IMG/VR virus record: IMGVR_UViG_3300020441_000003
Location: 1 to 64,000 of that record
DNA length: 64,000 nucleotides
Reading direction: 5' to 3' (one strand)
DNA from: a virus
Lineage: Duplodnaviria; Caudoviricetes
Shown here piece after piece: positions 27,896 to 46,012 of the stretch; the first letter of the stretch is position 1, and every line of letters starts with the position of its first letter. Both the position numbers and the translations under genes were made by a program. The notes below the pieces were generated by a model that did no database searches, was not told where the DNA came from, and saw nothing but the letters and a program-made list of their open reading frames with translations.

Positions 27896-28110
27896 TATGC
27901 GTTCTCTTCGATATACTCTTTTATTTTGCCAACTGTATCTAGACTCTCTGCATCTTCATCTGGTATTTGTATATCAAATTGATTTTCAAATTCCATTATT
28001 AATTCTACAGTATGCAAAGAATCTGCACCTAAGTCATCTATAATATGTTTATCATCTGTCACTTCTGACAAATCAAGACCTAAATGGTCTGCAATTATTT
28101 TCTCTATCAT
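27895..28110 (-). CDS. acpP: Acyl carrier protein
   Basis: DDLGADSL phosphopantetheine site, FDIQIPDEDAE, acidic 71 aa. Confidence 0.92.
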   Translation of the reverse strand: MIEKIIADHLGLDLSEVTDDKHIIDDLGADSLHTVELIMEFENQFDIQIPDEDAESLDTVGKIKEYIEENA

Positions 28111-28964
28111 TATGGTTCTCCAAATGGATTTACTTCACTCAGATCAAGATAATTAGAATCTTGGTCTTCAAAGTCTTTGTTTTGAGCAGATGCATCATTA
28201 CTAAACACCATTCTATCATCAATAGAGTTTATAGTATATTGTGCTGTTGATGTGGCACCCACTAACACATCAGTTGTTGCAAGTGTCGTAGTGACATCTT
28301 TAATTGTAAGTTTACTTGTAATATTATTCCACGCAACAACTTCACCAACAACAGTTCCACTCTTAGTTATATTTTCATTCACAACATAATTTTGACCGTT
28401 ACCACTAGCCATTGTCATAACAGTTGTATATGCTTGTTCATCTTCGATAAGATCGATATCACCGATACCTGTATCAAAGTCTTCTTGACTGTATTCAAAC
28501 AATTCACATTGTAATTTAAACACAAATAGTTTACCCACTTGATAAAATGGGTCTTCATGTTCTACGAATTTGATTTCAAACATAGAACCTGATAATGGGA
28601 AGTAAATTAAATCTCCTTCATTAGGTCTGAATGATGTTGCAAGATTATCATCTAAAGATATGAATCTTTCCCATGTTCTTAATGATATGATAAATGTCGC
28701 TTGGTCTCTGATTTGAACACCAAACTTAGACATGAGATCACCCTCACCCTCGAAACCATCGGTGTTCTCAATATACATTTCAACTTGATAAGAATCACCA
28801 AATTTAGATTGCACATCTTCATTTAAGATTGAATCTTCTTCGATTACTTCTCTAGGCAGATAAAAGACATTATGCCCATACATGCGTAGGGCTTCAACAA
28901 CTAAATCTTCGTATAGATGTTGTTCTGTCTGGACTGCATGATTAAAAAATACATTTGTTGGCAT
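28110..28964 (-). CDS. gp14: Neck protein
   Basis: YLPRE, RPNEGDLIYFP, CELFEYSQE, EVNPFGEP. Confidence 0.93.
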   Translation of the reverse strand: MPTNVFFNHAVQTEQHLYEDLVVEALRMYGHNVFYLPREVIEEDSILNEDVQSKFGDSYQVEMYIENTDGFEGEGDLMSKFGVQIRDQATFIISLRTWERFISLDDNLATSFRPNEGDLIYFPLSGSMFEIKFVEHEDPFYQVGKLFVFKLQCELFEYSQEDFDTGIGDIDLIEDEQAYTTVMTMASGNGQNYVVNENITKSGTVVGEVVAWNNITSKLTIKDVTTTLATTDVLVGATSTAQYTINSIDDRMVFSNDASAQNKDFEDQDSNYLDLSEVNPFGEP

Positions 28965-28968
28965 ATCA

Positions 28969-29784
28969 CTATCCTATCATGTCCATAGGTAACATGTCAT
29001 GATTAAGTCTCGCTTCCTCTTCTAGTCTTGTTATTTCTTCCTGTGCTTCTGTTTTTAATTGTTGTCCATCAAGTGTCACACCACCAGGTAATGCGATACC
29101 TTGAAACTTAGATAGGTTTTCACCCCATTGATATTTGACTTTTGCAGTTGCATATTTTTTCAACCACATATCATTATAGATATCTGTAAAGTCTGTAGGG
29201 TCAAGTTTTCTATAACACTCTATAATTATAAACTCGTTGTTGTTTATCATGTCTACATCCATATCTAAGTATAATCTATTTTGGTGTTGATTAAATCTGA
29301 TAGGTTGTCGACCAACTAGAATGTTATCTAGTAATCTTATGTGTTGTTGCACCATTTCGTAATATAATACATTTGTTGCAGTTAAATCATATAAGTCATT
29401 GAGTCTTAATTGATATCTTAAATCAAACATATTTAAGTTATGTTTATCATTAAAAGGAAAGATATTCATAACTGCCATTACAAAATCAGGCAATACTACA
29501 TAATTTTGTTGTTGTTTAAATTGTTCGTCTGTATATGCATGTGTTCCAGCGGCTGTCTCTGTAAATGATTCATCAGTCTTCATTGTTGTAATTTTTGAAT
29601 CAGTAATCTGATGTTTGAGATACATCTTCATAGAACCCTCATAATGATACTGGTGAAAGTATTGTAGCGCTTCGTCTATTCTATCATCAAACTGGTCATC
29701 ATCGACATTGATTTCTAGAACAGGTGCACCAAGAGCTCTCTTGATGTATGCTTTTAATGTTGCTTTGCTATTTGGTGATGCCAT
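28969..29784 (-). CDS. gp13: Neck protein / head-tail adaptor
   Basis: LGAPVLEINVDDDQ, WLKKYATA, QWGENLSKF, LPGGVTLDG. Confidence 0.94.
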   Translation of the reverse strand: MASPNSKATLKAYIKRALGAPVLEINVDDDQFDDRIDEALQYFHQYHYEGSMKMYLKHQITDSKITTMKTDESFTETAAGTHAYTDEQFKQQQNYVVLPDFVMAVMNIFPFNDKHNLNMFDLRYQLRLNDLYDLTATNVLYYEMVQQHIRLLDNILVGRQPIRFNQHQNRLYLDMDVDMINNNEFIIIECYRKLDPTDFTDIYNDMWLKKYATAKVKYQWGENLSKFQGIALPGGVTLDGQQLKTEAQEEITRLEEEARLNHDMLPMDMIG

Positions 29785-30088: not shown

Positions 30089-30096
30089 TATTTAGT
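30089..30096 (-). promoter_or_regulatory. T4-type late promoter
   Basis: ACTAAATA-N5-ATG. Confidence 0.6.
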
Positions 30097-30766
30097 AAAT
30101 AAAGTCGCCGTTTTCATCTACTTCCCACTCTAAATCATGATTTTTTATGTTCTGTCTTTCTCGTCCACCAGTCACATCCCAATTAAAAGAAATACTGTAT
30201 CTATCTTTTTGAGTTAGATTAGGTTCGACCATATGCATGAGACCACTAGGAAAAAGATATAGATCACCAGTCTTTGGTCTAACTCCCCATGACTCCCATA
30301 TTCTTGCCTGTGAAGAAGGAAAGTTTGAAACTATTTTATGGTCTGTATCAACCATTCTAAGATCACCCTCATCTCCTTCTGCTTGAATAAAGAATACACC
30401 TGAATAAAAACAACCATTATGTAAGTGTGGGGCGTTCCAAGCGCCTGGATAGTTAATGTTTGCCCATGAGTTATGCAACTCTATCTTTGCTGAATCTTTT
30501 TCGATTCCGAGAAAAGGAACAAGTTCATCTCTAAATTCTCTTTTAATTTGTCTTAATGCACGAATAAAAACAGGATTTTTATCTATACCATCTATTGATT
30601 GCCAACCATTTCTATTAGATATATTTCTACCTTTGGGGTCACGCTTTCTCATTGCATCAATTTCTTCTTTCAATGCAACCATATATTCTGGTGTAATCTC
30701 AGAACATTTATCTCTATCAAGATATTGTTTAGTTAAAACGAATGTTGGAAATAATAATTTAATCAT
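30092..30766 (-). CDS. Putative 2OG-Fe(II) oxygenase (TIGR02466-like)
   Basis: GWQS, WANIN, HLH...SGVFFI, FPSGLMHMV, RYSISFN; start MIKLLFP overlaps the upstream stop. Confidence 0.88.
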   Translation of the reverse strand: MIKLLFPTFVLTKQYLDRDKCSEITPEYMVALKEEIDAMRKRDPKGRNISNRNGWQSIDGIDKNPVFIRALRQIKREFRDELVPFLGIEKDSAKIELHNSWANINYPGAWNAPHLHNGCFYSGVFFIQAEGDEGDLRMVDTDHKIVSNFPSSQARIWESWGVRPKTGDLYLFPSGLMHMVEPNLTQKDRYSISFNWDVTGGRERQNIKNHDLEWEVDENGDFIY

Positions 30767-31598
30767 CTTTTTCACTCTTATGAAAAGGACACTCAGGTGG
30801 TGGTTCATCTTCTTTATAGAACTGACCTTTCTCTTGCCAATATCCTTCTAGACGATAAGGACCCATTTTACCGTCTTTCTTCATGTCATCATATTTAGTT
30901 CGACCCATTTCATCCATTGTTGGCATATCATCATGTGCAGTATACTTACTTCTATTATCGTGCCAAGTTTGTGAATCTTTCAATTGATATGTTGCAACCC
31001 ATTCTTCCCTTTTGTAAGGTATTATTTGAACTAATGGTGTGCCTTTCTTAATTACAAATGAATGGTCTACTTTTGGATAAAAAATTATTTGTGAGTTATC
31101 ATAATTAGTATTAAACTTATCTGTATCAATTATTCCATGCCATGTAGAAAAGAATTTGTTTTGATGTAAAAATGGGTCAACATAAAAACAAGAATATCCT
31201 GGCGGTGTTTTAATATTCCAGGCACTTCTCATTTTAAATGCATCTCTAACTGGATTATCACCACCTAGATATTCAAATGTATGGTCTACTTGATCTGCTG
31301 GGTGTGATGGCGAATTGTAATTGCCTTTCTCATCTTTAGTTATATAACTAGAACTGTTTTCTGAAAATCTATCAGCGCCTACTAAAACTTGCATATCTCT
31401 ATTTGCAGTTATAAACCATCCTGATTTTGTCCAGTCATGCATAGCTGGACATGCACGAATAGTCTGAGTAAACTTACCTCTAATAGATTGATTTACTTTC
31501 ATTTTTTTCCACCAATCAGGTAATAAACTCTTTGCAAGAACTGGTTTAAAGTCTCTTAAACTATCTTCATTGAATGTTATAAAGTCTATTGTAGGCAT
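30759..31598 (-). CDS. Hypothetical protein, dUTPase-like beta fold (DUF6065-like)
   Basis: TIRACPAM, WNIKTPPGYS, GIIDTD, IKKGTPLVQIIP. Confidence 0.6.
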   Translation of the reverse strand: MPTIDFITFNEDSLRDFKPVLAKSLLPDWWKKMKVNQSIRGKFTQTIRACPAMHDWTKSGWFITANRDMQVLVGADRFSENSSSYITKDEKGNYNSPSHPADQVDHTFEYLGGDNPVRDAFKMRSAWNIKTPPGYSCFYVDPFLHQNKFFSTWHGIIDTDKFNTNYDNSQIIFYPKVDHSFVIKKGTPLVQIIPYKREEWVATYQLKDSQTWHDNRSKYTAHDDMPTMDEMGRTKYDDMKKDGKMGPYRLEGYWQEKGQFYKEDEPPPECPFHKSEKDD

Positions 31599-32269
31599 GT
31601 TAATTCTACCTCGTCCCCTCTCAATACGATTGATCTTCTATCTGCATATCTAGCTCTTTCGTTAGGCGCATCTGCACCGTGTGGTATTCTTCCGTCAAAC
31701 ATAAGTAATCTATTTGGTTTAAAATCAACTTCTGCTATTTGATGATTTTCTATATGTTCATTTCTGCCTTCTAAACCTTGTTGATGTTCATTATAAAATC
31801 TCAATGTTCCGCCCCAATCATCATTCCAAAAAGTATTGTAATAGTATAGAAAAGATAAATTATAATCATCATCTTTGTCACAATCTGAATGTGTAGTTCC
31901 GTGTTGACCATATGTTTGTGAATTAGTTCCCATATATTGAAATCTTATCCAATCAAATCCAAAATCAGTTTTTATTTTATCATTCAAATATTTTGCCATA
32001 TATGTATATTGTTTTGGAATATCTTCAATCATTTGACCATTTTTTGCAGTAAAGAAACTTGAACCCCAAAATTGATGGTGAGGCAAACCTGTTTTACTTT
32101 GACCTCTAACAGAATTTGTTTTAGACCATGTTGGCATATTTGTTATCTGTTGATTTAAAAAATGATGCAATGATTGTTCTAGATAATTGTCTATTACATA
32201 TACTTTATCTAAAGGCAATTTATCAATATGAAAAGGTTTATCAACCTTAACTATTTCTAAAGAGTTCAT
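31586..32269 (-). CDS. 2OG-Fe(II) oxygenase, prolyl-hydroxylase-like
   Basis: HSD, WNDDWGGTLRF, FKPNRLLMFDGRIPHGA...R. Confidence 0.9.
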   Translation of the reverse strand: MNSLEIVKVDKPFHIDKLPLDKVYVIDNYLEQSLHHFLNQQITNMPTWSKTNSVRGQSKTGLPHHQFWGSSFFTAKNGQMIEDIPKQYTYMAKYLNDKIKTDFGFDWIRFQYMGTNSQTYGQHGTTHSDCDKDDDYNLSFLYYYNTFWNDDWGGTLRFYNEHQQGLEGRNEHIENHQIAEVDFKPNRLLMFDGRIPHGADAPNERARYADRRSIVLRGDEVELTCLQ

Positions 32270-32820
32270 TAGTCTATGAAAGCTTTTTGTGGTGGCGGTA
32301 TTAGATTTGCATAATCTTCAAATGGTTTTAAAACATCTTCTCTAGTTGACTGTATTTCATTAGCAACATTGATGTATACATTCCAGACGGCATCATAATA
32401 CTCTAATACTCTTCTTGCATCTGATCTTAAAGGGTGATTTGAACCCTCTCTGCCAGCCGCTATAACATCTATAGAATCTGTGAATCCATATGATTCAGAT
32501 TGTTGATACACATAATCTTTACACATTTCATTTAGATTTTCTGAATATTGATTGTTTAGATTTACATTTTCTGGTGGTGCAGAATTTTCAATGTAAGTTT
32601 CTATTGCATCTATTTCAGTATCGTTTAGATTTACTTTCACTTGTTCATCAAAACAGACATTATCTTTCCATTCTAGTATTTTAACTTCTATGTCGTCATA
32701 GACTACAACATCGTATTCAAATCCTAATTCAGGTTTATCTGTATTTTCAAAGTTGTATTGTAATCCATTCGGTTTTCTAACAGTTAGAGTTCCGTTTTCA
32801 TCGTATATAAACATATTCAT
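32269..32820 (-). CDS. Hypothetical protein (possible fibre assembly chaperone)
   Basis: Acidic 183 aa next to fibre genes; function inferred from position only. Confidence 0.55.
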   Translation of the reverse strand: MNMFIYDENGTLTVRKPNGLQYNFENTDKPELGFEYDVVVYDDIEVKILEWKDNVCFDEQVKVNLNDTEIDAIETYIENSAPPENVNLNNQYSENLNEMCKDYVYQQSESYGFTDSIDVIAAGREGSNHPLRSDARRVLEYYDAVWNVYINVANEIQSTREDVLKPFEDYANLIPPPQKAFID

Positions 32821-32837
32821 AATAACTCCATTATATC

Positions 32838-34376
32838 TTAATTGTTATGTTTTGCCAATAGTTTTTCGTAAATATTTAGGTGTTGTATCTCAGATGTATC
32901 CATACCCTCAATCCAAGGTCCGCCTCTTGTGTAATGAACTGCAAGTGGTCTCCATACTTTATCTGTATATGCATGTCCTTCTGTAATTACAAACCATTCT
33001 GGTATTTCTGATATTGCATCAGTCCATTCAAATTGATGTAAGTATTTTCCTGTTTCTGTATTCACTACTTCTGGTGTTAGTTTTTTACAGTCTTCATGAC
33101 CATTATTAAATATCATAAGCGAGGACCAAAGTTTCTTCGGATATGATACATTCTTTTCACCTGTAAATTTAGTTTCAGGATACTTATCAAAGTCGTATTG
33201 TATACATGCAACTGCATCATCAGGATTCATAAAGTAAAACATAGGTAAAATACTTCCGTCAAATAGAATATCATCATCTAAAAAGATACTAAATCCTTCA
33301 TAGTTTTCTAAATGTGGTATTAAAAATCTACTATATGTAAATTCAGTAGATTGATTTGCATAGTCTCTAGTATACTCAGGTATCTTTGAAATGTCAAGAA
33401 ACTTTATTTCTGGTCGCCATTTAGACATCGAACCATTGATATCACCTCCACCAAAACCATGATTTATACCTTTCTCTAAACATTTTTTACATAAGTCTGC
33501 AAGGTCTGTATGTCTTGAATCATAACCAACATATATGTTTAGTGGTTTACCTTTACATAACTTAGATACTTTTCTATTGAACTCATATACATTTTGTCTG
33601 AAAGATGTTTGAACTGATGCTTCGCAAGATATCTCTATGTAACCATTAGAATAATTAAACGATATATTCTTATGACCTTTTTTTGTAAATTCATTTTCTT
33701 TTACATCTTCTATCAGTTCTTCAATAGTATATTCTGGTGAATCTATAACATCAAACTCGTCCCAAATCCACATTGGCAATGTAGGGTCATCAAGTATTTC
33801 GAAGACACCTGATCTTACAGAACCTGGGTGTATTGCGAGTCTATATTTATCATTGTGTCCTTCATTTACTTTACCTTGAATAGGATTCCAAAGTCCTTCT
33901 TTTCTAATACTGTCAATCAACCAATGTGCCTTTGCAGAATGATAATAAGAAGAATTTAATGCATCTCTCTTTCTACCCTCATACTCATAGTCTACATTAG
34001 TAAAGTCACAATGATTACCTATTTCTTCATATTCATCATTAACATTTTTAAAGTCCATGCCAGATTTGCCTGGTTCTGGAAGTTCAGGTTTTTCAGTATA
34101 CCCATAAGGCAAAAAATATTGATAAGTAAATGATTGTGATTGTAATTGATTCCAACCCCACATCTTACCGTCTTTAATAAGTTGTGCGATTTCACCCCAT
34201 GTAGTTTTTTTGAGTTTAATACCTAAATGATCTTTCAACCACTTAAATGTTTTGTATGCATTTTCATCTTCGTATGGTTGATCTACTTCAAAACCACCTA
34301 AATGGTAATGAAAAAATTTATCCTTAGGTTCAGAAAATGTTTCTTTAACTTGTTCTAGAGTTTTTGATTTCATCAT
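32838..34376 (-). CDS. Fusion: ParB/Srx-like segment plus GT-A glycosyltransferase
   Basis: LIDSIRKEGLWNPI...HPGSVR; IYVGYDSR, STEFTYSRFLIP, FLDDDILF, WSSLMIFN. Confidence 0.8.
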   Translation of the reverse strand: MMKSKTLEQVKETFSEPKDKFFHYHLGGFEVDQPYEDENAYKTFKWLKDHLGIKLKKTTWGEIAQLIKDGKMWGWNQLQSQSFTYQYFLPYGYTEKPELPEPGKSGMDFKNVNDEYEEIGNHCDFTNVDYEYEGRKRDALNSSYYHSAKAHWLIDSIRKEGLWNPIQGKVNEGHNDKYRLAIHPGSVRSGVFEILDDPTLPMWIWDEFDVIDSPEYTIEELIEDVKENEFTKKGHKNISFNYSNGYIEISCEASVQTSFRQNVYEFNRKVSKLCKGKPLNIYVGYDSRHTDLADLCKKCLEKGINHGFGGGDINGSMSKWRPEIKFLDISKIPEYTRDYANQSTEFTYSRFLIPHLENYEGFSIFLDDDILFDGSILPMFYFMNPDDAVACIQYDFDKYPETKFTGEKNVSYPKKLWSSLMIFNNGHEDCKKLTPEVVNTETGKYLHQFEWTDAISEIPEWFVITEGHAYTDKVWRPLAVHYTRGGPWIEGMDTSEIQHLNIYEKLLAKHNN

Positions 34377-34391
34377 ATAGTTTCATAATAT

Positions 34392-35600
34392 TTATCCAGT
34401 TATAGGACTGCCTGGCCACGAACCTGCTGGGTCACCGTCCCACCTAATTACAGGCGTTCTGCCTTGTCTTGCATATGTAGACGGACTTCTGTGATTGTAT
34501 GTAAAAGGTGTTCGACCTTGTCTTGCATAAGTCGATGGTGATCTATGGTTATAAGTCAACGGACTTCTATGTTGATATGTCAAAGGACTTCTATGTTGAT
34601 ATGTGCCAGGTTGTCTTGAATCTCTAATATTAGGTTCTTGTGCATTTGAAGCCACTTGATAGATTGCAGGTTGTCTTGCATCTCTAATATTAGGTTCTTG
34701 TTGGTTTCTAATAAACGGATTCTGTGCATTAACAATAGAAGGCTGTTGTTGGTCACGAATATTAGGTTCTTGTGCATTTGAAGCCACTTGATAAATCAAT
34801 GGTTGTCTTGCATCTCTAATGTTCGGTTCTTGTCCAGCCCTTATAAAAGGATTTTGTGCATTGGCAATAGAAGGCTGTTGTTGGTCACGAATATTTGGTT
34901 GTTGTGCGTTTGAGGCAACTTGATATATAAGAGGTTGTCTCGCATCTCTAATATTAGGTTCCTGTTGGTCTCTAATAACAGGTTGTTGATTAGCTCTTAT
35001 ATTTGGTTCTTGTCCTGACCTGATATTTGGTTCCTGTGCATTTGAGGCCACTTGATAAATTAGTGGTTGTCTTGCATCTCTAATGTTTGGTTCTTGTTGC
35101 GATCTTATATTTGGTTCTTGTTGGTCTCTTATATTAGGTTGTTGTGCTGAACGAATATTTGGTTGTTGTGCATTGGAAGCCACTTGATAAATTAGTGGTT
35201 GTCTTGCATCTCTAATGTTTGGTTCTTGTGCATTTCTGATACTTGGTTCTTGAGCCGACCTGATATTTGGTTGTTGAGAAGACCTAATATTTGGTTCTTG
35301 TGCTGATACAGGATTTCTATATGTGAAAGGCGACCTGTGATTATATGTAAAAGGCAACTGATAACCAACAGGGTTTCTGTAACCGAATGGTGATCTATGA
35401 TTATATGTAAACGGATTTCTGTATGTAAAGGGCGACTGAAATGTAAATGGTTGTTGTCCTGCTACAGGGTTTCTATATGTAAATGGATTTCTATATGAAT
35501 ATGTTTGTTGACCAGACACAGGTGACCTATAAGTGAAAGGGTTTCTTCCACTGTTTGGTTGTCTTGCGTTTGCTATTGTTGGTTGCTGTGCTGACGGCAT
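34392..35600 (-). CDS. Pro-punctuated repeat fibre protein B (mirror partner of 35604-37436)
   Basis: 48 x-x-P units; QEPNIR-rich middle, YQHRSP-rich C-terminus. Confidence 0.85.
   Translation of the reverse strand: MPSAQQPTIANARQPNSGRNPFTYRSPVSGQQTYSYRNPFTYRNPVAGQQPFTFQSPFTYRNPFTYNHRSPFGYRNPVGYQLPFTYNHRSPFTYRNPVSAQEPNIRSSQQPNIRSAQEPSIRNAQEPNIRDARQPLIYQVASNAQQPNIRSAQQPNIRDQQEPNIRSQQEPNIRDARQPLIYQVASNAQEPNIRSGQEPNIRANQQPVIRDQQEPNIRDARQPLIYQVASNAQQPNIRDQQQPSIANAQNPFIRAGQEPNIRDARQPLIYQVASNAQEPNIRDQQQPSIVNAQNPFIRNQQEPNIRDARQPAIYQVASNAQEPNIRDSRQPGTYQHRSPLTYQHRSPLTYNHRSPSTYARQGRTPFTYNHRSPSTYARQGRTPVIRWDGDPAGSWPGSPITG
34452..35588 (-). repeat. Coding tandem repeats of 18/24/30/36 nt with a 132-nt super-period
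   Basis: Five DARQPxIYQVASNAQ blocks 44 aa apart. Confidence 0.9.
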
Positions 35601-35603
35601 AAA

Positions 35604-37436
35604 CTATTTCGGTAAACCGCCCCCTGGATTCATATTTTCCATGTTATGCACTAACATACCATTAGCAAAGAAATTATGATTTTCATTTACTCCCGATAAG
35701 TTATATACTTGCATGTCTGTGTTTTCGTTTATAGAAATTATTTCTAATCCTACATCGTCTGTTCTGTCAAACATAATCGCATCTGTCATTGAGAATAAAC
35801 TATCACCAACTTTAAGTTCATGAGAGTTTACGCCCTCCATCCAATCATGTTGTCTCTGACATTTTTCAACATCAAATGCTCCCCATTCTCCGTTAGTCAT
35901 CATTAGTGGATGACTATCTGTGACTTGTAATATTCTTCCGTCTGATAACTCTACATCATATATAGAGTCTATTCTTGGTACCATCACATGATATATTGAT
36001 TTTGGTTCTATTATCTTTGTGCTTTCGTTCCAAGTCATTATGTATTGTCCATTCACACAATGCTCGATAGGCGCATGACTGCCATCTCCTAACCAAATCA
36101 TTGTGCCAGGTGCGAAACAACCGCCACCAAATGGTATCTGAATCGGATTTCTATGTTGATATGTAAACGGCGATTGAGATGTAAATGGTTGTTGTCCGTT
36201 TACAGGATTTCTATATGTAAATGGTGTTCTTCCTATAACTGGTTGTTGTCCATTTACAGGGTTTCTGTATGTAAATGGATTTCTTGCACTATTCGGTTGT
36301 CTTGCATTACTTGGTGATTGTGCTGACCTAATATTTGGTTCTTGTGCGTTTACAGGATTTCTATATCCTCTCGGCGTTCTTGCATTTCTGATATTAGGTT
36401 GTTGACCAGATACAGGTGATCTATAAGTGAAAGGCGATCTATGCTGATATGTAAACGGTGACCTATGGCCATAAGTAAGAGGCGATCTAAAGTTATAAGT
36501 AGACGGACTTCTATGTTGATATGTAAACGGCGCTTGATAACTTCTAGGGTCTTGATATATAGAAGGCGATCTATGTTGATATTCAAACGGACTTCTATGT
36601 TGATAAGTTGTAGGCGATCTATGTTGATAAGTTGCAGGTGACCTATGTTGATATGTAAACGGCGCTTGATAACTTCTAGGGTCTTGGTATATAGAAGGCG
36701 ATCTATGTTGATATGTAAACGGTGACCTGTGTTGATAATTAGACGGACTTCTATGTTGATAAGTTGTAGGCGATCTATGTTGATATGTAAATGGCGCTTG
36801 ATAACTTCTAGGGTCTTGATATATTGACGGACTTCTGTGTTGATATATTACAGGCGTTCTTAAATTATATGTAGACGGACTTCTATGCTGATATGTAAAC
36901 GGACTTCTGTGTTGATATGTAAAAGGCGTTTGATAACTTCTAGGGTCTTGGTATATTGAAGGCGATCTATGTTGATAAATTATCGGTGTTCTTAAATTAT
37001 ATGTAGATGGACTTCTGTGTTGATAAGTTGCAGGCGACCTGTGATTATATGTGAAAGGTACCTGATAACTTCTCGGGTCTTGATATATTGACGGACTTCT
37101 GTGTTGATATGTAAAAGGCGTCTGATTACTTCTTATATTAGGTTCTTGTTGTGACCTTATATTGGGTTCTTGTTGGTCTCTAATTACAGGTTCTTGTGCA
37201 TTCGCAATATAAGGATATGGTTGTTGGCCATTTCTAATAAAAGGATTTTGAGCGTTCGCAATATAAGGATAAGGCTGTTGAACGCTCTCCTGTCCTGATG
37301 CATTGTTCCAACCAGAAGGCGTTTTGATATAGATTTGATCTACATCTTTCCATGTGCCTGAAGCTGTTTTTACCCAAGCACCTCGGGTTGCTGACCAACC
37401 TGAAGGAGTTTTTACCTTTTGTGAACCTGTTGCCAT
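35604..37436 (-). CDS. Pro-punctuated repeat fibre protein A with C-terminal Hint domain
   Basis: N-terminal VKTxSGxW hairpins, 48 x-x-P units, Hint motifs. Confidence 0.88.
   Translation of the reverse strand: MATGSQKVKTPSGWSATRGAWVKTASGTWKDVDQIYIKTPSGWNNASGQESVQQPYPYIANAQNPFIRNGQQPYPYIANAQEPVIRDQQEPNIRSQQEPNIRSNQTPFTYQHRSPSIYQDPRSYQVPFTYNHRSPATYQHRSPSTYNLRTPIIYQHRSPSIYQDPRSYQTPFTYQHRSPFTYQHRSPSTYNLRTPVIYQHRSPSIYQDPRSYQAPFTYQHRSPTTYQHRSPSNYQHRSPFTYQHRSPSIYQDPRSYQAPFTYQHRSPATYQHRSPTTYQHRSPFEYQHRSPSIYQDPRSYQAPFTYQHRSPSTYNFRSPLTYGHRSPFTYQHRSPFTYRSPVSGQQPNIRNARTPRGYRNPVNAQEPNIRSAQSPSNARQPNSARNPFTYRNPVNGQQPVIGRTPFTYRNPVNGQQPFTSQSPFTYQHRNPIQIPFGGGCFAPGTMIWLGDGSHAPIEHCVNGQYIMTWNESTKIIEPKSIYHVMVPRIDSIYDVELSDGRILQVTDSHPLMMTNGEWGAFDVEKCQRQHDWMEGVNSHELKVGDSLFSMTDAIMFDRTDDVGLEIISINENTDMQVYNLSGVNENHNFFANGMLVHNMENMNPGGGLPK
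35643..36119 (-). other. Hint (intein-like) domain, 159 aa, no endonuclease
   Basis: Starts CFAPGT, block B TDSHP, ends VYNL...HNFFANGMLVHN; +1 residue is Met. Confidence 0.9.
36144..37280 (-). repeat. Coding tandem repeats with a 132-nt super-period
   Basis: Five RSPSIYQDPRSYQ blocks 44 aa apart. Confidence 0.9.
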
Positions 37437-37454
37437 GTTATATCCTAATTACTC

Positions 37455-39929
37455 TTATGAGTATAGTATCCATAAATCTCCAACTGCACCATCTGAACTA
37501 CCAGGCGCTGAAGTTGATTGATATATGTTTCTCGCTACACCACCACTATTATTTGCGTATGATGTTGTAATTTGTGAGGCTCTAAAGTTTGCCTCTGAAA
37601 ATGTTAAGTTACCAGTTGATGCACCAGTAAATGAACCAGTTCCTACTGTCACTCTATCTGCACTTTCATCCCAACCAATAAATACATTGTCTGAACTTCC
37701 TCTTTCAAAAACAAGACCCATATCGTTGCCTGGTGTGCCTGTTGTTCCAGTTCCTAATTCTATTAATCTATCTTCGATAGTTGTGTTTGTTGATGATGCA
37801 GTTGTTGTTGCACCATTAACAGTTAAATTACCTGTGACTGTTAAATCGTTTGTGACTGCTAAATCATTTCCTATTGTCACATCATCTGGTAATGAAATTG
37901 TGACACCTGCTGTTTCTGAACCAGAACCTGATACTGTAATTTCATTTGAGGTACCTGCTACAGTTGCAACATAGTTTCCTGTTGTATCTGTGCCTAGTGC
38001 AACTGAGTTAGCGGCGATAGTAGTTGATATTGATACATTGCCTTTTGCAGTCTGAGTTGCGGTACCTGTGACATCACCTGTCAATGCAAAGTCTGAGTTT
38101 GCAACTACGAAATCTAAATTACCATCTGTATCATCGTATGATACTGAGATACCTGTTTCGGTACCATCTAACATACCACCAACAAAGTCTTCTACATTTT
38201 CTTGTGTAAGTTGAGTATTGTTTGTTGATATTGAACCACCAAGTGATACTGCTGTGCCATCGATTGTTATTGAACTATTTGATAGTAATGAGTTACCAAT
38301 AGAACCTGCAAGTTTGCCAGCGGCTATCGAACCTGCCAACATGGCATTTGTGACACCACCTGCTTTAACTTGTAATTGATCTGAACTTGTTTCTATTGAA
38401 CTATCATCTACACCAACTGCAAGAGATACGGAACTTCCAAGTGATACTGAACCACCACCTGATAAACCGTCACCTGCTGTGACTGTGACTGCACTATTAG
38501 CGAGTTTGCCATTTGCGATTGAACCTGCTAACATAGCGTTTGTGACACCTGATGCCTTGATTCTTAATGCATCACTGTTTGTTTCTATAGAACTGTCATC
38601 TACGCCTACTGCAAGAACACCACTTGTTGCAGATAAACCATCACCTGCAATTGCAGTCACTACATCTGCGACTGCCTCTTTCTTAGAACTGTTATCGCCT
38701 GCATCTATAATAGCAATACTATCATTTGCAACATCTACGGCGGCCGCTGTTAGTTCGTTTAAATCTAATGCAAGTGATACTGCACCTGATGTGCCACCAC
38801 CTGAGAGTCCGTTTCCTGCTGTGACTCCTGTAATATCGGCACTATTTGAGTTTGTTATTGTTAATGAATTAGCGGCGTCATCATATGATAATGATATACC
38901 AGTTCCTGCTGTTAGTAGTGCATTTACTCTGTCATCTACTCTTTCGTTTGTGTGATATAAATTAGATGAACCCTCTCCAACACTATCTGTATTGAGAGTT
39001 AAAGAACCACCTAATGAAACTGAACTACTGTTTAATGTTATTGCAGAGTTGGCTAATTCTGCGTTTGCAACACCACCGTCTTTGATTGTGACTGCGCCAC
39101 TTGATACTGCAAAATTATCTGAACTAAATGATGCAACACCTTTGTTAGATGTAGTTGCATCTTCGGCTGAATATGTGACTGTGCCTGAACTTTCTGCAAC
39201 ATCGATTCCTTCTCCAGCACTGAATGTTATTGTTCCACCTAATGATGTTGCAGTCGAATTACTGCCATCGGTAACTGTGATTGATGAGTTTGCAAGTTTA
39301 GAGTTCGCAATCGAACCACCTAACATTGCATTTGTGACACCTGATGCTTTTACTTGAAGTGTATCAGAAGAAATCTCTATTGAACTATCATCTACTTGAA
39401 CATTAAGTGTGACATCTCCTGATGTGCCACCACCTGTCAAACCACTTCCTGCAACGACAGATGATATATCTCCTGTTTCTGATATACTTAATACACCACT
39501 AGATGCATTTAATCCTGAACCTGCCATGGCAGATACTAAATCTGCAATCGTTTCTTTTTTACTTGCGTTTGAATCGTTAGCATCTATTAATACGACACTA
39601 TCGTTTGCGACATCAACTGTAGCCGCTGTTAATTCGTTCAGATCAAGAGCAAGTGATAATGCACCTGATGTGCCACCACCTGATAATCCATTTCCTGCTG
39701 TGACACCTGTAATGTCACCTACTTGTCCGTTAATTGTTAGGGTTCCAGCGGCGTCATCATATGATAACGATATACCTGTTCCCGCTGTTAAGAGAGTATT
39801 TACTTGGTCATCAATAACTTCTAGAGCTGCTGTGGAAAAAGCAGCTGCTGTCAAGTCACCTGAACTGTCGATGACTTCCGTAGAACCAATACTAAGTCCG
39901 TTTTTGATTCTAAAATTTTGAGCTGCCAT
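37455..39929 (-). CDS. Long tail fibre-like structural protein with internal repeats
   Basis: Gly/Ser/Thr/Ala-rich; repeated ITGVTAGNGLSGGGTSG and VDDSSIE...GVTNAMLAGSIAN; ends GAVGDLWILYS. Confidence 0.8.
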   Translation of the reverse strand: MAAQNFRIKNGLSIGSTEVIDSSGDLTAAAFSTAALEVIDDQVNTLLTAGTGISLSYDDAAGTLTINGQVGDITGVTAGNGLSGGGTSGALSLALDLNELTAATVDVANDSVVLIDANDSNASKKETIADLVSAMAGSGLNASSGVLSISETGDISSVVAGSGLTGGGTSGDVTLNVQVDDSSIEISSDTLQVKASGVTNAMLGGSIANSKLANSSITVTDGSNSTATSLGGTITFSAGEGIDVAESSGTVTYSAEDATTSNKGVASFSSDNFAVSSGAVTIKDGGVANAELANSAITLNSSSVSLGGSLTLNTDSVGEGSSNLYHTNERVDDRVNALLTAGTGISLSYDDAANSLTITNSNSADITGVTAGNGLSGGGTSGAVSLALDLNELTAAAVDVANDSIAIIDAGDNSSKKEAVADVVTAIAGDGLSATSGVLAVGVDDSSIETNSDALRIKASGVTNAMLAGSIANGKLANSAVTVTAGDGLSGGGSVSLGSSVSLAVGVDDSSIETSSDQLQVKAGGVTNAMLAGSIAAGKLAGSIGNSLLSNSSITIDGTAVSLGGSISTNNTQLTQENVEDFVGGMLDGTETGISVSYDDTDGNLDFVVANSDFALTGDVTGTATQTAKGNVSISTTIAANSVALGTDTTGNYVATVAGTSNEITVSGSGSETAGVTISLPDDVTIGNDLAVTNDLTVTGNLTVNGATTTASSTNTTIEDRLIELGTGTTGTPGNDMGLVFERGSSDNVFIGWDESADRVTVGTGSFTGASTGNLTFSEANFRASQITTSYANNSGGVARNIYQSTSAPGSSDGAVGDLWILYS

Positions 39930-40135
39930 TAAAAGGTTCCTCCATCTATAGTCGAGCTGTCTAATCTAGTATCAAATCTAGAATTTGTAAAATAGAGATT
40001 TGATGAGCCTTCTGAGAGATTATCTGTATCTAAATTAGACACTGCGTTAGAAACCACTTTACCATTATTATCAATGACATCTGTTGTTCCGACAGAAACT
40101 CCATACTCTACTCTAAATTTTTTAGTGTCAGCCAT
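39929..40135 (-). CDS. Small fibre connector protein
   Basis: N-terminus paralogous to that of 37455-39929; EGSSNLYFT; ends IDGGTF. Confidence 0.7.
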   Translation of the reverse strand: MADTKKFRVEYGVSVGTTDVIDNNGKVVSNAVSNLDTDNLSEGSSNLYFTNSRFDTRLDSSTIDGGTF

Positions 40136-41501: not shown

Positions 41502-42959
41502 TTAAAATGTTCCGCCGTCAATAGCAGTGATTGATACTGCACCAGATGATACTGTAAAGTTTGCAGATGCGAATGAAGCAATACCTTTATTAGTAGTAGT
41601 TGCATCTTCACCAGCGATAGTTATGCTACCAGCGCCGTTAGTCACATCGATACCCTCACCAGCAGAGATTGTTCCTAATTGCATGTCACCATTTGAAGAA
41701 TGACCCATTAGAATCTGACCATTTGTTGGTGCAGAACCATCAATACTTGTGATTGAACCTGAGAGTGCAAGACCTGATGCTTCTAATCCACCAAATACTG
41801 CGCCAAGGGCGGTACCTGAGAATGTTGAAGAAGAATCTGTCGCACTTCCCAATGCTATGAATTTACCTGTTGAATCATCGAAACCGAAGAAACCAACTTT
41901 TGCACCTGATGAGTTATACTTAAATTTAATACCTCTGTCTAGGTTGTCATCTGAACTGTCATCGCCAATTTCAAAAACAGGGTCAGCGATTGACACTGTA
42001 GTTGAATTAACAGTAGTAGTTGTTCCACTTACTGTCAAGTTACCAGCGATTGTGACATTATCAGGTAACCCGATTGTGACGGTGTTTCCTGAACCTGCTG
42101 TTGTTATCTCGTTTGCTGTTCCAGCGAATGTTAATGTTTCACTGTCTAGATCAATTGCTAATGCGCCACCTGAATCTGCTTGAAAGTCCAAGTCTTGTGC
42201 TGTAATTAAAGACTGAATTTTGTCTTGAACGGCCGCTGATGTCATGATAGATACATCATCGTCACTAAAAGATTCACCTGATGTTTGAACCATTGCACCT
42301 GCCAATGAACCAAATACAACTGCACTAGCAGCTAATTGGTCTGCGCCTACGGCGTCATCGGCTATCATTGCTTGTTCTACAGCATCGTTAGCGATTGTTA
42401 ATGCTCCGTTTGCAGCTAAAGTTGCATCTCCTGATACTGAAACATTATCAAATGAATTTGAACCATCATGAACAAGTATTTGTCCTGATGATGCAGATGA
42501 TATGTCTGTATCTGATGCGCCTGCAATCGAACTTGTAGTAGATACGAATGATAATACTCCTGAACCGTTAGTACCTAAAACCTGACCGTTTGAACCATCT
42601 GAACTAGGTAATGTTAATGTTATATTACTACCTATTGTGTCTGGTGCTTTAAGACCTACGAAGTTTGTTCCGTTATCGGAATCTTCCATAATTTTTAAAG
42701 TACCGCCAGATGATGACCCATTACCAACTAAGAAGTCGGCAGGTGTAGCACTTGAACCATCTATGATATCGGTGTAATATTTACCACCAACTTCATGAAT
42801 AACTGCTGAACCACCTGAGTCTACAGATTCTATGTATAACTTAGCAGAAGCACCACTATTCGATCTATCTTGCACATACGCTAATTCGCCCTCAGCAAGA
42901 TCACTTACTGCTGGCGCACTCGCTCCTGTGCTTCTTTTGATTTGAATTACTGTTGCCAT
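41502..42959 (-). CDS. Tail fibre-like protein with Mtd_N-like N-terminus
   Basis: MATVIQIKRS...GELAY; G/S/A-rich; ends IDGGTF. Confidence 0.8.
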   Translation of the reverse strand: MATVIQIKRSTGASAPAVSDLAEGELAYVQDRSNSGASAKLYIESVDSGGSAVIHEVGGKYYTDIIDGSSATPADFLVGNGSSSGGTLKIMEDSDNGTNFVGLKAPDTIGSNITLTLPSSDGSNGQVLGTNGSGVLSFVSTTSSIAGASDTDISSASSGQILVHDGSNSFDNVSVSGDATLAANGALTIANDAVEQAMIADDAVGADQLAASAVVFGSLAGAMVQTSGESFSDDDVSIMTSAAVQDKIQSLITAQDLDFQADSGGALAIDLDSETLTFAGTANEITTAGSGNTVTIGLPDNVTIAGNLTVSGTTTTVNSTTVSIADPVFEIGDDSSDDNLDRGIKFKYNSSGAKVGFFGFDDSTGKFIALGSATDSSSTFSGTALGAVFGGLEASGLALSGSITSIDGSAPTNGQILMGHSSNGDMQLGTISAGEGIDVTNGAGSITIAGEDATTTNKGIASFASANFTVSSGAVSITAIDGGTF

Positions 42960-43657: not shown

Positions 43658-44431
43658 TTAATCGCTAAATTGTGCAGTAGGTACCGATTGATGTATTTTT
43701 TCTACTGTCGAACTATCTTTTTTCACAAATACTTGACTTACTTTCGATACACCTTGTGCTTGTTTCTTAAATACACCTTTAACTTTTGCTACTTGTTGTA
43801 TAGGTCTAGTTGTAATATATGGTTGTTGATATATAAACGGACTTCTATACCCATATGGTAATGTATATGGTTGTTGAGTATTAGCAGATGTTTGTGCGTT
43901 TCTTATAAAAGGACTTTGTGCATTCGAAGGATTCCTATAAGTTGACGGCGATCTATGTTGATACTGTATAGGACTTCTATGATTATAAAAAGTCGGTGAT
44001 CTATGTTGATAGATTACTGGTTGTCTAGAATCTCTGATATTAGGTTCTTGTTGGTCTCTTATATTTGGTTCTTGTGCATTTCTAATATGTGGATTTTGTC
44101 TTTCAGCAGGTTGTCTTCCGATATATGGACTTTGTGCATTTTTAATTACAGGTTCTTGATACGCAACAGGATTTCTGTAGAATGCAGGTTGTTGTTGAGC
44201 TCTCTCGTTAGGTTGTTGAGCATCTGCGATATACGGATATGGTTGTTGTTGACTTCTAATAAAAGGATTTGCTTTATTTCTAATAAAAGGATTCTGCACA
44301 CTGTAAGTTGACGGTGATCTATGTTGATACGAAGATGGTTGTCTTGCATTTCTGATATGTGGATTTTGCACATCATAAGATGCAGGTTGTCTTGCAATTA
44401 TCGGAGTTGTAAACTGATATGCTACGCCCAT
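43658..44431 (-). CDS. Pro-punctuated repeat fibre protein D (mirror partner of 44435-46012)
   Basis: x-x-P units over residues 8-210; C-terminal VKGVFKK...VSQVFVKK. Confidence 0.82.
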   Translation of the reverse strand: MGVAYQFTTPIIARQPASYDVQNPHIRNARQPSSYQHRSPSTYSVQNPFIRNKANPFIRSQQQPYPYIADAQQPNERAQQQPAFYRNPVAYQEPVIKNAQSPYIGRQPAERQNPHIRNAQEPNIRDQQEPNIRDSRQPVIYQHRSPTFYNHRSPIQYQHRSPSTYRNPSNAQSPFIRNAQTSANTQQPYTLPYGYRSPFIYQQPYITTRPIQQVAKVKGVFKKQAQGVSKVSQVFVKKDSSTVEKIHQSVPTAQFSD

Positions 44432-44434
44432 TGC

Positions 44435-46012
44435 TTATTCTCCCTCTTCCTCGTCATCATTATTAGATTCAGCACTGGCACCAACTGCAAAAACAATTAG
44501 TAAATCACATTTATGTTCTACATTTGTGTCTAAATCTTTTATCATAAATTCTAAAATAGTTGATGAACCCCTATTATCAGCTGCGGAACCCTCACTTCCG
44601 TTAGTATCAACAGTAGTGCTATAACCTATTTCAAGTCCGTGGGTGCCTAGATTTTGATATGAAGTTGTTATTCCAGTCACACCAGTCGGAACTCCTAAAG
44701 CATGTTTTCTAGTAGTGGTCTCATCTGGATTACCATCATTGGTAGTTACCGAAGTCACACCAGTGGTTGTTCGTGGCCATTGCTCTGGTGTGCCTAAGCA
44801 TCCCATATCACTTGCTAGTTCAGCATAATTAGATGCATCTGGAGTATATCCCTTACTGGCAAGTTGACCATTCCATTGTGAGACATTTAAACTGTAAGGA
44901 GATGCTGTCGGGTTTGCATAATTAACTTTTACTTGAGCTCTTGAAGCTCCTATATTTGTAAGTTTAAATATTTGAGAAAAAGAAGAAGTTCCTATATCAC
45001 TGGTTGTATAACTAAATGAACTAGATGCTGATGATGACATATTACCTATTCTAGAATGATGTGGTGTCGTATTTGATAAAGTATCAACTGAACTAGCCTC
45101 TCTTACAAGAATTTCAACATCATTAGTATTTGTATATTGAACTTTAAATTCAAATCCAGCACCTGCTACGGCAGTTGAACCAGAGGCACTTGTATCTAAA
45201 TCAAATCCACCATCAATACCAATAATACTTGAAGCTCCTTGTTGTCTTATTGAATTGCCAGTGTTCGTATCATTTGGTATACCAGCACCTGTGCCAAATC
45301 CTGTTATAAGTTCTGATGCTCTTGCAATATATTCAACTTGACCTACTGTTAAAAATCCTGATGCAGGTTGTTGATGACTGTAAGTTGTTTGATATGAACC
45401 TATTGACGGACTTCTAAAGACATATGTAAATGGTGTTTGTGCGTTTCTTATAAACGGATTTTGTGCATTTGCAATCGATGGTGATCTATGACTATATGTG
45501 CTTGGACTTTGATGCTGATAGATAACTGGATTTCGACCTGTCGCCTGATATGAAGACGGACTTCTATGTTGATATATTATAGGGTGTCTGTATGCAACTG
45601 GACTTCGATAAGTTCCTGGTGATCTATGTTGATATGTTGAAGGCTGTCTTGCTTGATAACTTACCTGATAAATCGATGGTGATCTATGTGAATATTCAAA
45701 TGGACTTCTATGGTTATAAGTCAACGGACTTCTATGTTGATATGTAAACGGAATCTGTTGCGCTCTAATATTAGGTTCTTGTTGTGACCTTATATTAGGT
45801 TCTTGTTGGTTTCTAATAAAAGGATTCTGTGTTGCTACAGGATTCTGATATGTTGACGGTGATCTATGAGCGTAAGTAGAAGGAACCTGATAGATTGCAG
45901 GAGTTCTTGCATCTCTCTGAGCAATTACTGGTTCTTGTGCGTTCTTTGATGCCCTAGCTATATAAGGTTGTTGAAAGGCCGCTGGGTGTTTGATAAAAAT
46001 ATCATCTGACAT
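44435..46012 (-). CDS. Pro-punctuated repeat fibre protein C with C-terminal globular domain
   Basis: x-x-P units over residues 14-216, then about 300 aa of non-repetitive beta-rich sequence. Confidence 0.82.
   Translation of the reverse strand: MSDDIFIKHPAAFQQPYIARASKNAQEPVIAQRDARTPAIYQVPSTYAHRSPSTYQNPVATQNPFIRNQQEPNIRSQQEPNIRAQQIPFTYQHRSPLTYNHRSPFEYSHRSPSIYQVSYQARQPSTYQHRSPGTYRSPVAYRHPIIYQHRSPSSYQATGRNPVIYQHQSPSTYSHRSPSIANAQNPFIRNAQTPFTYVFRSPSIGSYQTTYSHQQPASGFLTVGQVEYIARASELITGFGTGAGIPNDTNTGNSIRQQGASSIIGIDGGFDLDTSASGSTAVAGAGFEFKVQYTNTNDVEILVREASSVDTLSNTTPHHSRIGNMSSSASSSFSYTTSDIGTSSFSQIFKLTNIGASRAQVKVNYANPTASPYSLNVSQWNGQLASKGYTPDASNYAELASDMGCLGTPEQWPRTTTGVTSVTTNDGNPDETTTRKHALGVPTGVTGITTSYQNLGTHGLEIGYSTTVDTNGSEGSAADNRGSSTILEFMIKDLDTNVEHKCDLLIVFAVGASAESNNDDEEEGE

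Follow-up and report, generated by a model that had tools for sequence, protein, structure and literature searches.

A candidate self-excising Hint domain at the distal end of a fibre protein in a marine T4-like phage

Hint domains are known from inteins, from Hedgehog processing domains, from secreted bacterial proteins (as BIL domains) and from pretoxin modules, and the question raised by the locus considered here is what such a domain may be doing at the C-terminal end of a phage fibre protein. The window, i.e. the whole stretch of 64,000 nucleotides that was analysed, comes from an uncultured marine T4-like phage whose major capsid protein is 64-66% identical to those of HTVC008M, Mosig and Melnitz, which points to a kinship with phages that infect SAR11 and OM43 bacteria. 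The open reading frame list places the gene in question, termed A, on the minus strand at 35604..37436 (all features given below lie on this strand) and its product has 610 aa. An anchor-like N-terminal region (about aa 1-47) is followed by Pro/Gln/Arg/Tyr repeats (about aa 48-436) with a 6/8/10/12-residue spacing, as established by repeat and composition analysis, and residues 48-436 contain neither lysine nor cysteine. The first 110 residues, i.e. the anchor and the first repeats, were matched by 240 proteins at E <= 1e-3, and amongst the homologues of A the number of repeats varies, giving protein lengths from 338 to 774 aa. A Pfam Cementoin match at residues 393-421 (27.9 bits against a cut-off of 27) is taken to be compositional, arising from Q-x-P repeats. 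The last repeat unit reads ...NPIQIPFGGG, with the run Gly437-Gly439 at 36120..36128, and then comes Cys440-Phe, Gly439 being the -1 residue of the predicted scissile bond between Gly439 and Cys440. The Hint domain occupies 35643..36119 (Cys440 to Asn598) and its C-terminal end, NHNFFANGMLVHN, is followed by a 12-aa tail, MENMNPGGGLPK (35607..35642), and a TAG stop; the tail would represent a short C-extein with Met at +1 and its sole lysine as the last residue.

The initial annotation had recognised after the GGG a 159-aa Hint domain with Cys1, a TDSH block B and a terminal HN, and on this the ORF translation, Pfam, NCBIfam, AlphaFold2 and Foldseek all agree; the residues are Cys440, 506-509 and His597-Asn598. 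Translation of nt 35643-36119 gives exactly 159 aa, from CF... through to ...HN. The Pfam model PF14890 (Intein_splicing) matched the whole of protein A with an E value of 1e-9 and the domain alone with 4e-11, both over the gathering cut-off, whilst the Vint and Hint (PF01079) models scored under theirs. With the NCBIfam models the domain reached 30.6 bits for intein_Nterm (cut-off 24.5) and 18.4 bits for intein_Cterm (cut-off 15.6), thereby passing both. An AlphaFold2 model based on a 32-sequence alignment had a pLDDT of 90 and a pTM of 0.86; the pLDDT was only 53 with 11 close homologues and rose to 90 once divergent family members were added. The model is devoid of an endonuclease insert. 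Foldseek matched it to HINT structures with a probability of 1.00, yielding 60 PDB matches at E <= 0.001, and the matches listed are without exception intein, BIL or Hedgehog structures, headed by 6y75/6tmm (BIL2), 4o1r, 1mi8 and 2lwy, the last of which was found by the fold search and was absent from the profile search at E <= 1. Judged from the predicted model, the nearest solved structure is BIL2 of Tetrahymena BUBL1, with the DnaB mini-inteins next. It is confirmed, far beyond chance, that the domain has the HINT fold with all the class-1 catalytic motifs.

Conservation was assessed with two alignments, one of 11 loci at 66-77% identity and one of 32 sequences with identity down to 25-35%. 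Cys1, TxxH, NH.F..NG and VHN were unchanged across all 11 loci, and the His-Pro and His-Asn pairs were unchanged across the wider alignment even at its lowest identities; the Hint domain starts with CF almost without exception in both. Block B is Thr506-Asp-Ser-His509 (TxxH; 35910..35921) and blocks F/G, ending in His597-Asn598, lie at 35643..35681 and align with the C-terminal motifs of NpuDnaB and BIL2. Ten related loci have a domain of precisely the same length, 159 aa. The median dN/dS of about 0.15, at dS values of 0.8-1.9, indicates from the coding sequences that the Hint domain is under purifying selection. Amongst 103 newly returned relatives the domain was kept in 36 of the 41 proteins with the MA[ST]G anchor, and as a single stop codon could remove a C-terminal domain its retention argues for function rather than decay.

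These data bear directly on the suggestion that the domain does not cleave at all and is either a permanent distal knob on the fibre or a decaying selfish mini-intein with no role. The missing +1 nucleophile would agree with this, as would the invariant Asn (VYNL) that stands here in place of the Asp found in block F of splicing inteins (VFDL in NpuDnaB) and the finding that the nearest tblastn matches of the Hint domain in cultured phages are true inteins, located in genes for helicases and terminases, together with a few partial matches in hypothetical or unannotated regions. (Megablast with the A-B region and tblastn with the product of the downstream gene, B, gave no match in cultured phages.) However, the residues for both cleavage steps are all invariant, a homing endonuclease is missing, the position of the domain does not correspond to a conserved enzyme site, and a domain that any stop codon would delete, if useless, has been kept by lineages that share as little as about 30% Hint identity. 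A non-cleaving Hint is accordingly considered quite improbable.

The residues flanking the domain have patterns of their own. The -1 residue was Gly in 66 of 71 family proteins, usually as part of a run of 2-8 glycines. Amongst 56 distinct tails the +1 residue was Phe in 17, Gly in 12, Met and Ile in 5 each, Leu in 4, Lys and Val in 3 each, Tyr and Arg in 2 each, and Ser, Ala and Asn in 1 each, so that Cys or Thr never occurs at this position, Ser occurs once and the residue is non-nucleophilic in 55/56. The tails are 4-27 residues long and no family member stops directly after the Asn. Lysine is present in 54 of the 56 tails, lying among the last three residues in 49, and both of its codons, AAA and AAG, are in use. 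In the AF2 model the tail has a pLDDT below 50.

It was also stated in the initial annotation that canonical splicing should not take place, Cys, Ser or Thr being missing at +1, and the tails uphold this (Met here; Ser in a single tail). A canonical class-1 intein is ruled out by the +1 residue together with the context, the domain following the final repeat of a fibre protein that is itself variable and not lying inside a conserved enzyme site. Class-1 splicing that joins A to the short C-extein, or to B once the TAG has been read through, might nevertheless be proposed from the presence of Cys1, TxxH and HN and from the fact that B starts 3 nt past the TAG of A, in the same frame, with only TTT between. 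Against this, in 10 related loci B followed in frame after 3 nt in five, out of frame after 8 nt in three and with an out-of-frame ATG/stop overlap in two, and the stop of A was either TAA or TAG. As neither spacing nor frame is conserved, a read-through fusion is not the design, and such an in-frame fusion of A and B was rejected; in addition, after a 14-residue spacer B has no Cys, Ser or Thr placed as +1. Splicing of either kind is thus extremely improbable.

The reading that we favour, and regard as probable though far from assured, is that a BIL-type (type A-like) Hint domain caps the distal end of fibre protein A and excises itself. From the conserved residues, it is envisaged that Cys440, aided by Thr506 and His509, would attack the carbonyl of Gly439 and that the resulting N-S acyl shift would generate a Gly439 thioester, whilst Asn598, aided by His597, would cyclise and so cut the 12-residue tail from the Hint domain. 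With no Cys, Ser or Thr after the Asn there would be no canonical transesterification and the thioester would be left for water or an amine to resolve. The products would be a mature A of 439 residues, its glycine-run end at the tip of an antiparallel A/B zipper, and a free Hint domain of 159 aa. The domain would then likely serve as a transient, removable tip module during the assembly of A and B, being no permanent part of the virion, in a position analogous to that of the intramolecular chaperone domain (S74) found in other fibres. Cleavage of this sort has precedent, as N- and C-cleavage products have been reported as the main outcome for BIL domains (PMC7664689; PMC7765530). The nearest sequence relatives outside the family are tandem Hint arrays with VHN/K junctions and Hint-ubiquitin (BUBL-like) proteins, P0042 and P0125 ranking amongst the latter. 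In Hint-less relatives of the fibre protein the poly-Gly is followed by just two more residues (GGGGPL before the stop, and in three clusters GGGGGCF, GGGCF or GAGCF before the stop), which suggests that a glycine-run C-terminus is a normal finished state for these proteins.

The candidates for the final acceptor of the acyl group are water, the tail lysine, for which BUBL BIL2 provides a precedent, and the N-terminus of B. The initial annotation had envisaged three fates, namely self-removal as an intramolecular chaperone, ligation of A to B, and coupling of the fibre tip to another molecule; the invariant His-Asn and the near-universal tail lysine point to a further one, acyl capture by the tail itself. 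Should an amine be the acceptor, the lysine or the alpha-amine of the tail would be the likeliest, amounting to BIL-type splicing in which the tail is rejoined to Gly439, and plain hydrolysis of the thioester would be about equally likely. Capture by the tail is favoured because His-Asn is invariant, because no protein ends at the Asn, because lysine is found in nearly every tail and with both of its codons, and because it is also found in locus L013, which is without a coupled downstream gene. It has to be asked whether the lysine is a mere by-product of the ribosome-binding site of B, as several loci have a purine-rich ribosome-binding region for gene B into which the 3' end of the tail extends, and the Lys/Arg/Glu bias of the tail could come partly from a constraint at the nucleotide level. 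This explanation is insufficient by itself, since the use of AAA as well as AAG, L013 and L012, where the Shine-Dalgarno sequence lies downstream of the stop, all disagree with it. Two objections apply. If the cap is plainly discarded, this would not account for His-Asn and a tail lysine being so strictly conserved, and if the tail is re-attached no gain over encoding an A-tail fusion directly is apparent.

The third candidate acceptor concerns gene B (34392..35600), which encodes a repeat partner of 402 aa that starts with Met-Pro, contains neither lysine nor cysteine and has a conserved C-terminal motif, RWDG...WPG[ST]PIT[GS]. The mirror spacing of Pro anchors in A and B was re-derived for this pair, and both the Pro-anchor spacing and a covariation in length between the repeat part of A and B (about 220 to 560 residues) were observed in 6 of 7 further loci, L003 deviating. 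The claim that the Hint domain is located where the N-terminus of B should lie has therefore held up. It can be proposed that the alpha-amine of Pro2 of B, once the Met has been removed, attacks the Gly439 thioester and welds A and B into a single hairpin chain with a ...PFGGG-PSAQQP... tip loop. The geometry is suggestive in that the mirror pattern sets the N-terminus of B beside the C-terminus of A and the Gly run would reach about 4 residues beyond the first Pro of B, leaving room for a turn; moreover, B starts -1 to 8 nt after A in all the loci compared. Two three-segment loci, L012 and L021, carry a Hint domain on each segment that precedes another, ending in Gly run, Hint and tail, and none on the last, a pattern which a junction or ligation role would fit at least as well as a cap. 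Ligation by BIL domains is reported to be feasible in the absence of a nucleophilic side chain (Aranko 2013, cited in PMC7664689). On the other hand, in the Hint-less paralogous pairs L016 and L017 the genes are coupled just as tightly and the partners likewise begin Met-Pro (MPIWTSN), which means that neither feature is specific to ligation and that zippers work non-covalently, and these pairs, with their poly-Gly plus two residues, make A-B welding weaker as a general need. Proline, a secondary amine, is a hindered nucleophile. The same Gly-Hint-Lys module is carried without a coupled partner by P0161, in which it follows a globular N-terminal domain and is separated by a 139-nt gap from an unrelated downstream gene, and welding leaves the invariant His-Asn and the tail lysine without explanation. 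It is consequently viewed as unlikely.

A somewhat less likely possibility again is that the thioester, either retained or generated when needed, passes the C-terminal glycine of A to a lysine or hydroxyl of another virion protein or of a component of the host surface, giving a covalent coupling of the fibre tip reminiscent of ubiquitin or of thioester adhesins. BUBL BIL2 does link other proteins, through their lysines, to the C-terminal end of its N-extein (PMC8616854), forming an isopeptide with the Lys epsilon-amine (section 2.4 of the same source), and the poly-Gly ahead of Cys1 recalls the GG end of ubiquitin-type proteins. The Gly-Hint-Lys module occurs on unrelated N-terminal domains as well. 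Lysine is entirely missing from the A repeats and from B, although arginine makes up 11% of both and the genome is AT-rich, which would be compatible with the avoidance of self-reaction, but B homologues in other loci have 0-4 Lys, so that avoidance is not strict. Furthermore, any acceptor is hypothetical, a thioester-competent precursor would have to remain intact in sea water, and the Hint-less relatives function without the module.

The proposed self-excising cap can be set beside several known systems, beginning with the type-A BIL domains (Amitai et al. 2003; Dassa et al. 2004; 2lwy of C. thermocellum). Both are HINT domains of about 140-160 aa without an endonuclease, with an N-terminal Cys, TxxH and a C-terminal His-Asn and no +1 nucleophile (as defined in PMC7765530 and PMC7664689), and both are found in variable, non-enzymatic proteins; N- and C-cleavage with some nucleophile-free ligation would be expected, and 2lwy gave Foldseek TM scores of 0.67/0.83 to the present domain. 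In contrast to type-A BILs the phage domain is always terminal on a fibre-like repeat protein, is preceded by Gly, usually as a run, and followed by 4-27 residues that nearly always include Lys, and its partner protein is encoded directly downstream. BIL2 of BUBL1, from a polyubiquitin-like locus of Tetrahymena thermophila (6y75, 6tmm; Chiarini et al. 2021), superposes with TM scores of 0.75/0.86 and an rmsd of 2.2 A and has a sequence-profile match of E 2e-5 at about 21% identity. Its N-extein likewise ends in glycine, and a lysine of its C-extein or of other proteins takes the acyl group as an isopeptide (PMC8616854), which for the phage protein is conjecture; here a fibre repeat protein rather than a ubiquitin-like domain forms the N-extein, and a peptide of 12 residues takes the place of a folded Ubl as the C-extein. 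The Hog domain of Hedgehog (1at0; TM 0.60/0.70, 9% identity) is also a C-terminal Hint at a Gly/Cys-Phe junction, like GGG/CF here, and transfers its N-terminal part via a Gly thioester, but the phage family keeps the His-Asn that Hog domains are without, and membership of the Hedgehog family with sterol transfer is ruled out as only 12 residues follow Asn598 and there is no sterol-recognition region.

The DnaB mini-inteins of Npu (4o1r) and Ssp (1mi8) were the best PDB sequence-profile matches (E 1e-5 and 2e-4) and the four splicing blocks align, but they reside inside a conserved enzyme site and have Ser, Cys or Thr at +1 and the block-F Asp, whereas the phage domain has a non-nucleophilic +1 residue and Asn. 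As regards the pretoxin-HINT domains of polymorphic toxins, the phage protein has a 12-aa tail and no C-terminal toxin domain, and PF07591 was not amongst the Pfam matches for A. The peptidase S74 domains of K1F endosialidase and T5 pb1 are C-terminal modules on low-complexity fibres that are thought to aid assembly and then cut themselves off (PMC7824862). The resemblance is purely functional, since fold and chemistry are unrelated, with hydrolysis by a Ser-Lys dyad in S74 as against a Cys thioester and Asn cyclisation, and the S74 model PF13884 gave no match to A at E <= 0.1. An S74-bearing protein of 749 aa is encoded two genes upstream of the A/B pair in locus L018.

No paper was found in the literature on Hint or intein-like domains capping phage fibres or in the virions of pelagiphages. 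The domain adjoins the start of a second, mirror-patterned protein, and if it does no more than cut itself off it would represent a second, chemically distinct answer to a problem that is solved elsewhere by S74 chaperone domains. A more far-reaching idea, which we hold to be possible but doubtful, is that it acts as an enzyme-free protein ligase in virion assembly, capture of the Gly439 thioester by an amine leaving the fibre tip covalently joined. This amine might be that of the N-terminal Pro of B, giving a hairpin or, in the three-segment loci, chained segments, or that of a lysine in the tail or in a virion or host protein. This, if true, would put intein chemistry to a new use, the building of a virus particle, and would amount to a natural, ATP-independent form of protein welding; a ligation module as compact as this (159 aa) would also interest biotechnologists. 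Marine metagenomes contain the family in abundance, its carriers being relatives of SAR11 and OM43 phages, and the finding therefore touches the adsorption apparatus of ecologically important viruses.

The repeat fibre protein A (610 aa, 35604-37436, minus strand) terminates as ...FTYQHRNPIQIPFGGG, followed by CFAPGT...TDSH...NHNFFANGMLVHN, then MENMNPGGGLPK and the stop codon, the Hint domain running from Cys440 to Asn598, exactly 159 residues (nt 35643-36119). The Pfam Intein_splicing model exceeded its gathering score on the whole of A and on the isolated domain and the NCBIfam models for the intein N-terminal and C-terminal regions both passed on the domain; the Pfam Vint and Hint models were below threshold on A. 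The description of the domain in the initial annotation was accurate in all details. AlphaFold2 supplied with 11 close homologues gave a poor model (pLDDT 53), and with a 32-sequence alignment, to which divergent family members from the exhaustive profile search had been added, pLDDT was 90 and pTM 0.86, with disorder confined to the tail that follows Asn598. The top Foldseek match in the PDB was BIL2 of the Tetrahymena BUBL1 locus (6y75/6tmm, TM 0.75/0.86, rmsd 2.2 A), followed by the Npu and Ssp DnaB mini-inteins, gp41-1, the BIL (bacterial intein-like) domain of C. thermocellum (2lwy) and, lower down, Hedgehog 1at0; a PDB sequence-profile search returned the same neighbours. The C-terminal domain of A belongs to the HINT superfamily. 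Assignment as a canonical intein was rejected, the +1 nucleophile being absent, as was membership of the Hedgehog class. In every feature testable from sequence the domain agrees with type-A BIL domains, autocleavage itself being predicted.

A word-indexed search with the domain yielded 19 homologues of 50 - 98% identity. Across the ten related loci compared (eight from IMG/VR and two from ENA) the domain is always exactly 159 aa long and always preceded by Gly, mostly as a run of 2 - 8, and Cys1, T-D-[SG]-H, N-H-x-[FY]-F-[AV]-N-G-M-L-V-H-N and many more positions are invariant; the tail is 5 - 13 residues long and variable in sequence. Median pairwise dN/dS across the domain is 0.15, at dS values of 0.8 - 1.9. 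When 1.84 billion representatives were searched exhaustively with a profile, 6682 proteins reached E <= 1e-3 and 30 reached E <= 1e-30, and the best matches outside the immediate family fall into three groups. The first comprises tandem Hint arrays (P0021, P0024, P0025, P0087) of 4 - 8 Hints with linkers of 1 - 4 residues (...LVHN followed by K-G-G-CF...), one array being from a Nanoarchaeota MAG (MBU0757110.1); these are the nearest non-phage relatives of A's Hint and to our knowledge have no known function. The second consists of BUBL-type Hint-ubiquitin proteins, including one foraminiferan protein, and the third of single C-terminal Hints with short tails on other N-terminal parts, either a globular domain of ~160 aa (P0076, P0093, P0130, P0148, P0161) or a 636-aa tail-fibre-like protein (P0088). 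The first 110 residues of A (anchor and first repeats), used as query, matched 240 proteins; a Hint was present on 36 of 103 new ones and on 36 of the 41 carrying the MA[ST]G...KVKTP anchor.

The residues flanking the Hint were examined in all single-Hint proteins with a tail of <=30 residues (76 proteins, 56 distinct tails). Position -1 is Gly in 66 of 71 proteins. Position +1 is F, G, M, I, L, K, V, Y, R, A or N, with Ser once and neither Cys nor Thr among the 56 distinct tails. Lys occurs in 54 of these tails, within the last three residues in 49, the two without Lys being a fragment and, on an unrelated protein, a tail of just two residues; even the shortest in-family tails, of four residues, contain it (MQKR, GEKK, FSEK, ISTK, LEQK, RQQK). 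The repeat part of A (389 aa) and the whole of its repeat partner B (402 aa) have no Lys, no Cys and 11% Arg in a genome of ~35% GC, where Lys codons would normally be favoured; B homologues elsewhere have 0 - 4 Lys. A nucleotide-level alternative, overlap of the 3' end of the tail with the ribosome-binding region of gene B, would explain the Lys bias at only some loci. Residues 393-421 of A (36175-36261) match Pfam Cementoin (PF10511, the trappin transglutaminase-substrate repeat) at 27.9 bits against a cut-off of 27, a match that is probably compositional and due to the Q-x-P repeats; even so, transglutaminases classically act on repeats rich in Gln.

The window makes up the first 64 kb of a viral contig from IMG/VR that totals 89.5 kb (estimated completeness ~49%). 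Its large genes are all encoded on the minus strand, in a T4-type structural module that includes the major head protein (16887-18191), portal (20721-22250), sheath (22804-24798), large terminase (24850-26439), neck proteins (28110-29784) and baseplate wedge proteins (54983-56473 and 60861-62732). The major capsid protein shares 64 - 66% identity with its counterparts in Methylophilales phage Melnitz and the Pelagibacter phages HTVC008M and Mosig, which places the source, an uncultured marine myophage, in that group. Genes A and B (34392-35600) are flanked by fibre-like structural genes and by a conserved cassette reaching gp13. Directly downstream of B, the cassette (30092-34376) encodes a 512-aa protein matching GT8 glycosyltransferases, a 183-aa protein, a 2OG-Fe(II) oxygenase (phrog_81), a 279-aa protein and a second oxygenase-like protein; its synteny is largely kept in four compared loci (L002, L003, L018, L019), with a GT8-sized protein and 2OG-Fe(II) oxygenases, and its content suggests that the fibres, rich in Pro/Tyr/Ser/Thr, are hydroxylated and/or glycosylated. 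Upstream of A (37455-39929 and 39929-40135) lies an 824-aa Gly/Ser/Thr/Ala-rich protein with internally repeated blocks of ~250 residues and recurrent motifs including VTAGNGLSGGGTSG, VDDSSIE and ASGVTNAMLxGSIA. Together with the products of 41502-42959 and 46017-47933 it matches phrog_697 ('structural protein'), and these are probably further fibre components. In L018, two genes upstream of a Hint-capped A gene, 640-2889 encodes a protein of 749 aa that bears a Peptidase_S74 intramolecular-chaperone domain, and therefore both kinds of self-cleaving fibre cap, the Hint by prediction, coexist in one tail module.

The spacing of [QR]-x-P anchors in A, read from N- to C-terminus, equals that in B read from C- to N-terminus if 6+6 is counted as 12. 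The Pro spacing series match again in six of seven further loci, and in those six the lengths of the A repeat part and of B co-vary (221/226, 230/236, 224/232, 345/352, 370/378 and 560/562 residues); the seventh, L003, lies outside the fit (206/246). Such covariation supports antiparallel, in-register pairing, and hence the earlier proposal that the Hint sits at the end of the A/B pair where the N-terminus of B lies. This geometry would also permit a Gly439 thioester to join A to the N-terminus of B, which starts Met-Pro in seven of the ten related loci and otherwise Met-Ala or Met-Val. A joining role fits L021 (2-1904), whose Hint is 95% identical to that of the window, and L012 (2-1444), of a divergent lineage: each has three consecutive genes, the first two ending in Gly-run, Hint and Lys-tail and the second and third starting with the B-like M-[AP]-...QQP repeat, so that every junction has a Hint and the last segment lacks one. 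The middle protein of L021 is the N-terminal part of B fused to the C-terminal part of A through the common SAQEPNIRSAQ repeat; on these short contigs the pairing of segments is not readable. However, Hint-less pairs likewise have the Met-Pro start and tight gene coupling, and the Hint module is also found on proteins with no coupled downstream partner (L013).

The Hint-less pairs of C/D type (window 43658-46012; L016:4001-5865; L017:4001-5937) have a first protein that is repetitive in its N-terminal part, globular in its C-terminal domain and ends in poly-Gly plus two residues (GGGGPL in L017, GGGGGCF in L016), and a partner starting MPIWTSN that overlaps the stop codon of the first gene (TAATG). 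Three Hint-less clusters end G-C-F-stop, C-F being the first two residues of a Hint, which looks like the relic of a lost domain. These endings also show that such a protein can viably finish in a run of glycines.

The reading favoured here is that the Hint is a self-excising cap, in which a thioester would form at Gly439/Cys440, Asn598 would cyclise and the domain would be removed from A. It is favoured because the thioester-forming and Asn-cyclising residues are all conserved under purifying selection, because the +1 nucleophile for transesterification is absent, because cleavage products are reportedly the main outcome for BIL domains, which are the closest class (PMC7664689; PMC7765530), and because the first proteins of the Hint-less C/D-type pairs end in poly-Gly plus two residues. 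Plain self-removal would leave conservation of His-Asn and of the tail Lys without a selective reason. His-Asn has been lost from several terminal Hint copies of the tandem arrays (such as ...NGNIVAS, ...NNILVFE, ...NGVSAED); in A's Hint family it is invariant. According to the account in PMC8616854 (citing Chiarini et al. 2021), BIL2 splicing forms an isopeptide between a Lys epsilon-amine and the C-terminus of the N-extein and thereby conjugates ubl4 to ubl5 or Ras, a precedent by which capture of Gly439 by the tail Lys becomes a concrete possibility. Capture by the alpha-amine of the tail after Asn cyclisation would also be possible, with precedent in Dassa 2004 and Aranko 2013 (as cited in PMC7664689). 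A literature search on Gly-Hint-Lys fibre caps found no publication, and what is new is the context: a Hint at the tip of a phage fibre, with an obligatory Gly run before it, a Lys-bearing mini-extein after it and a mirror-patterned partner.
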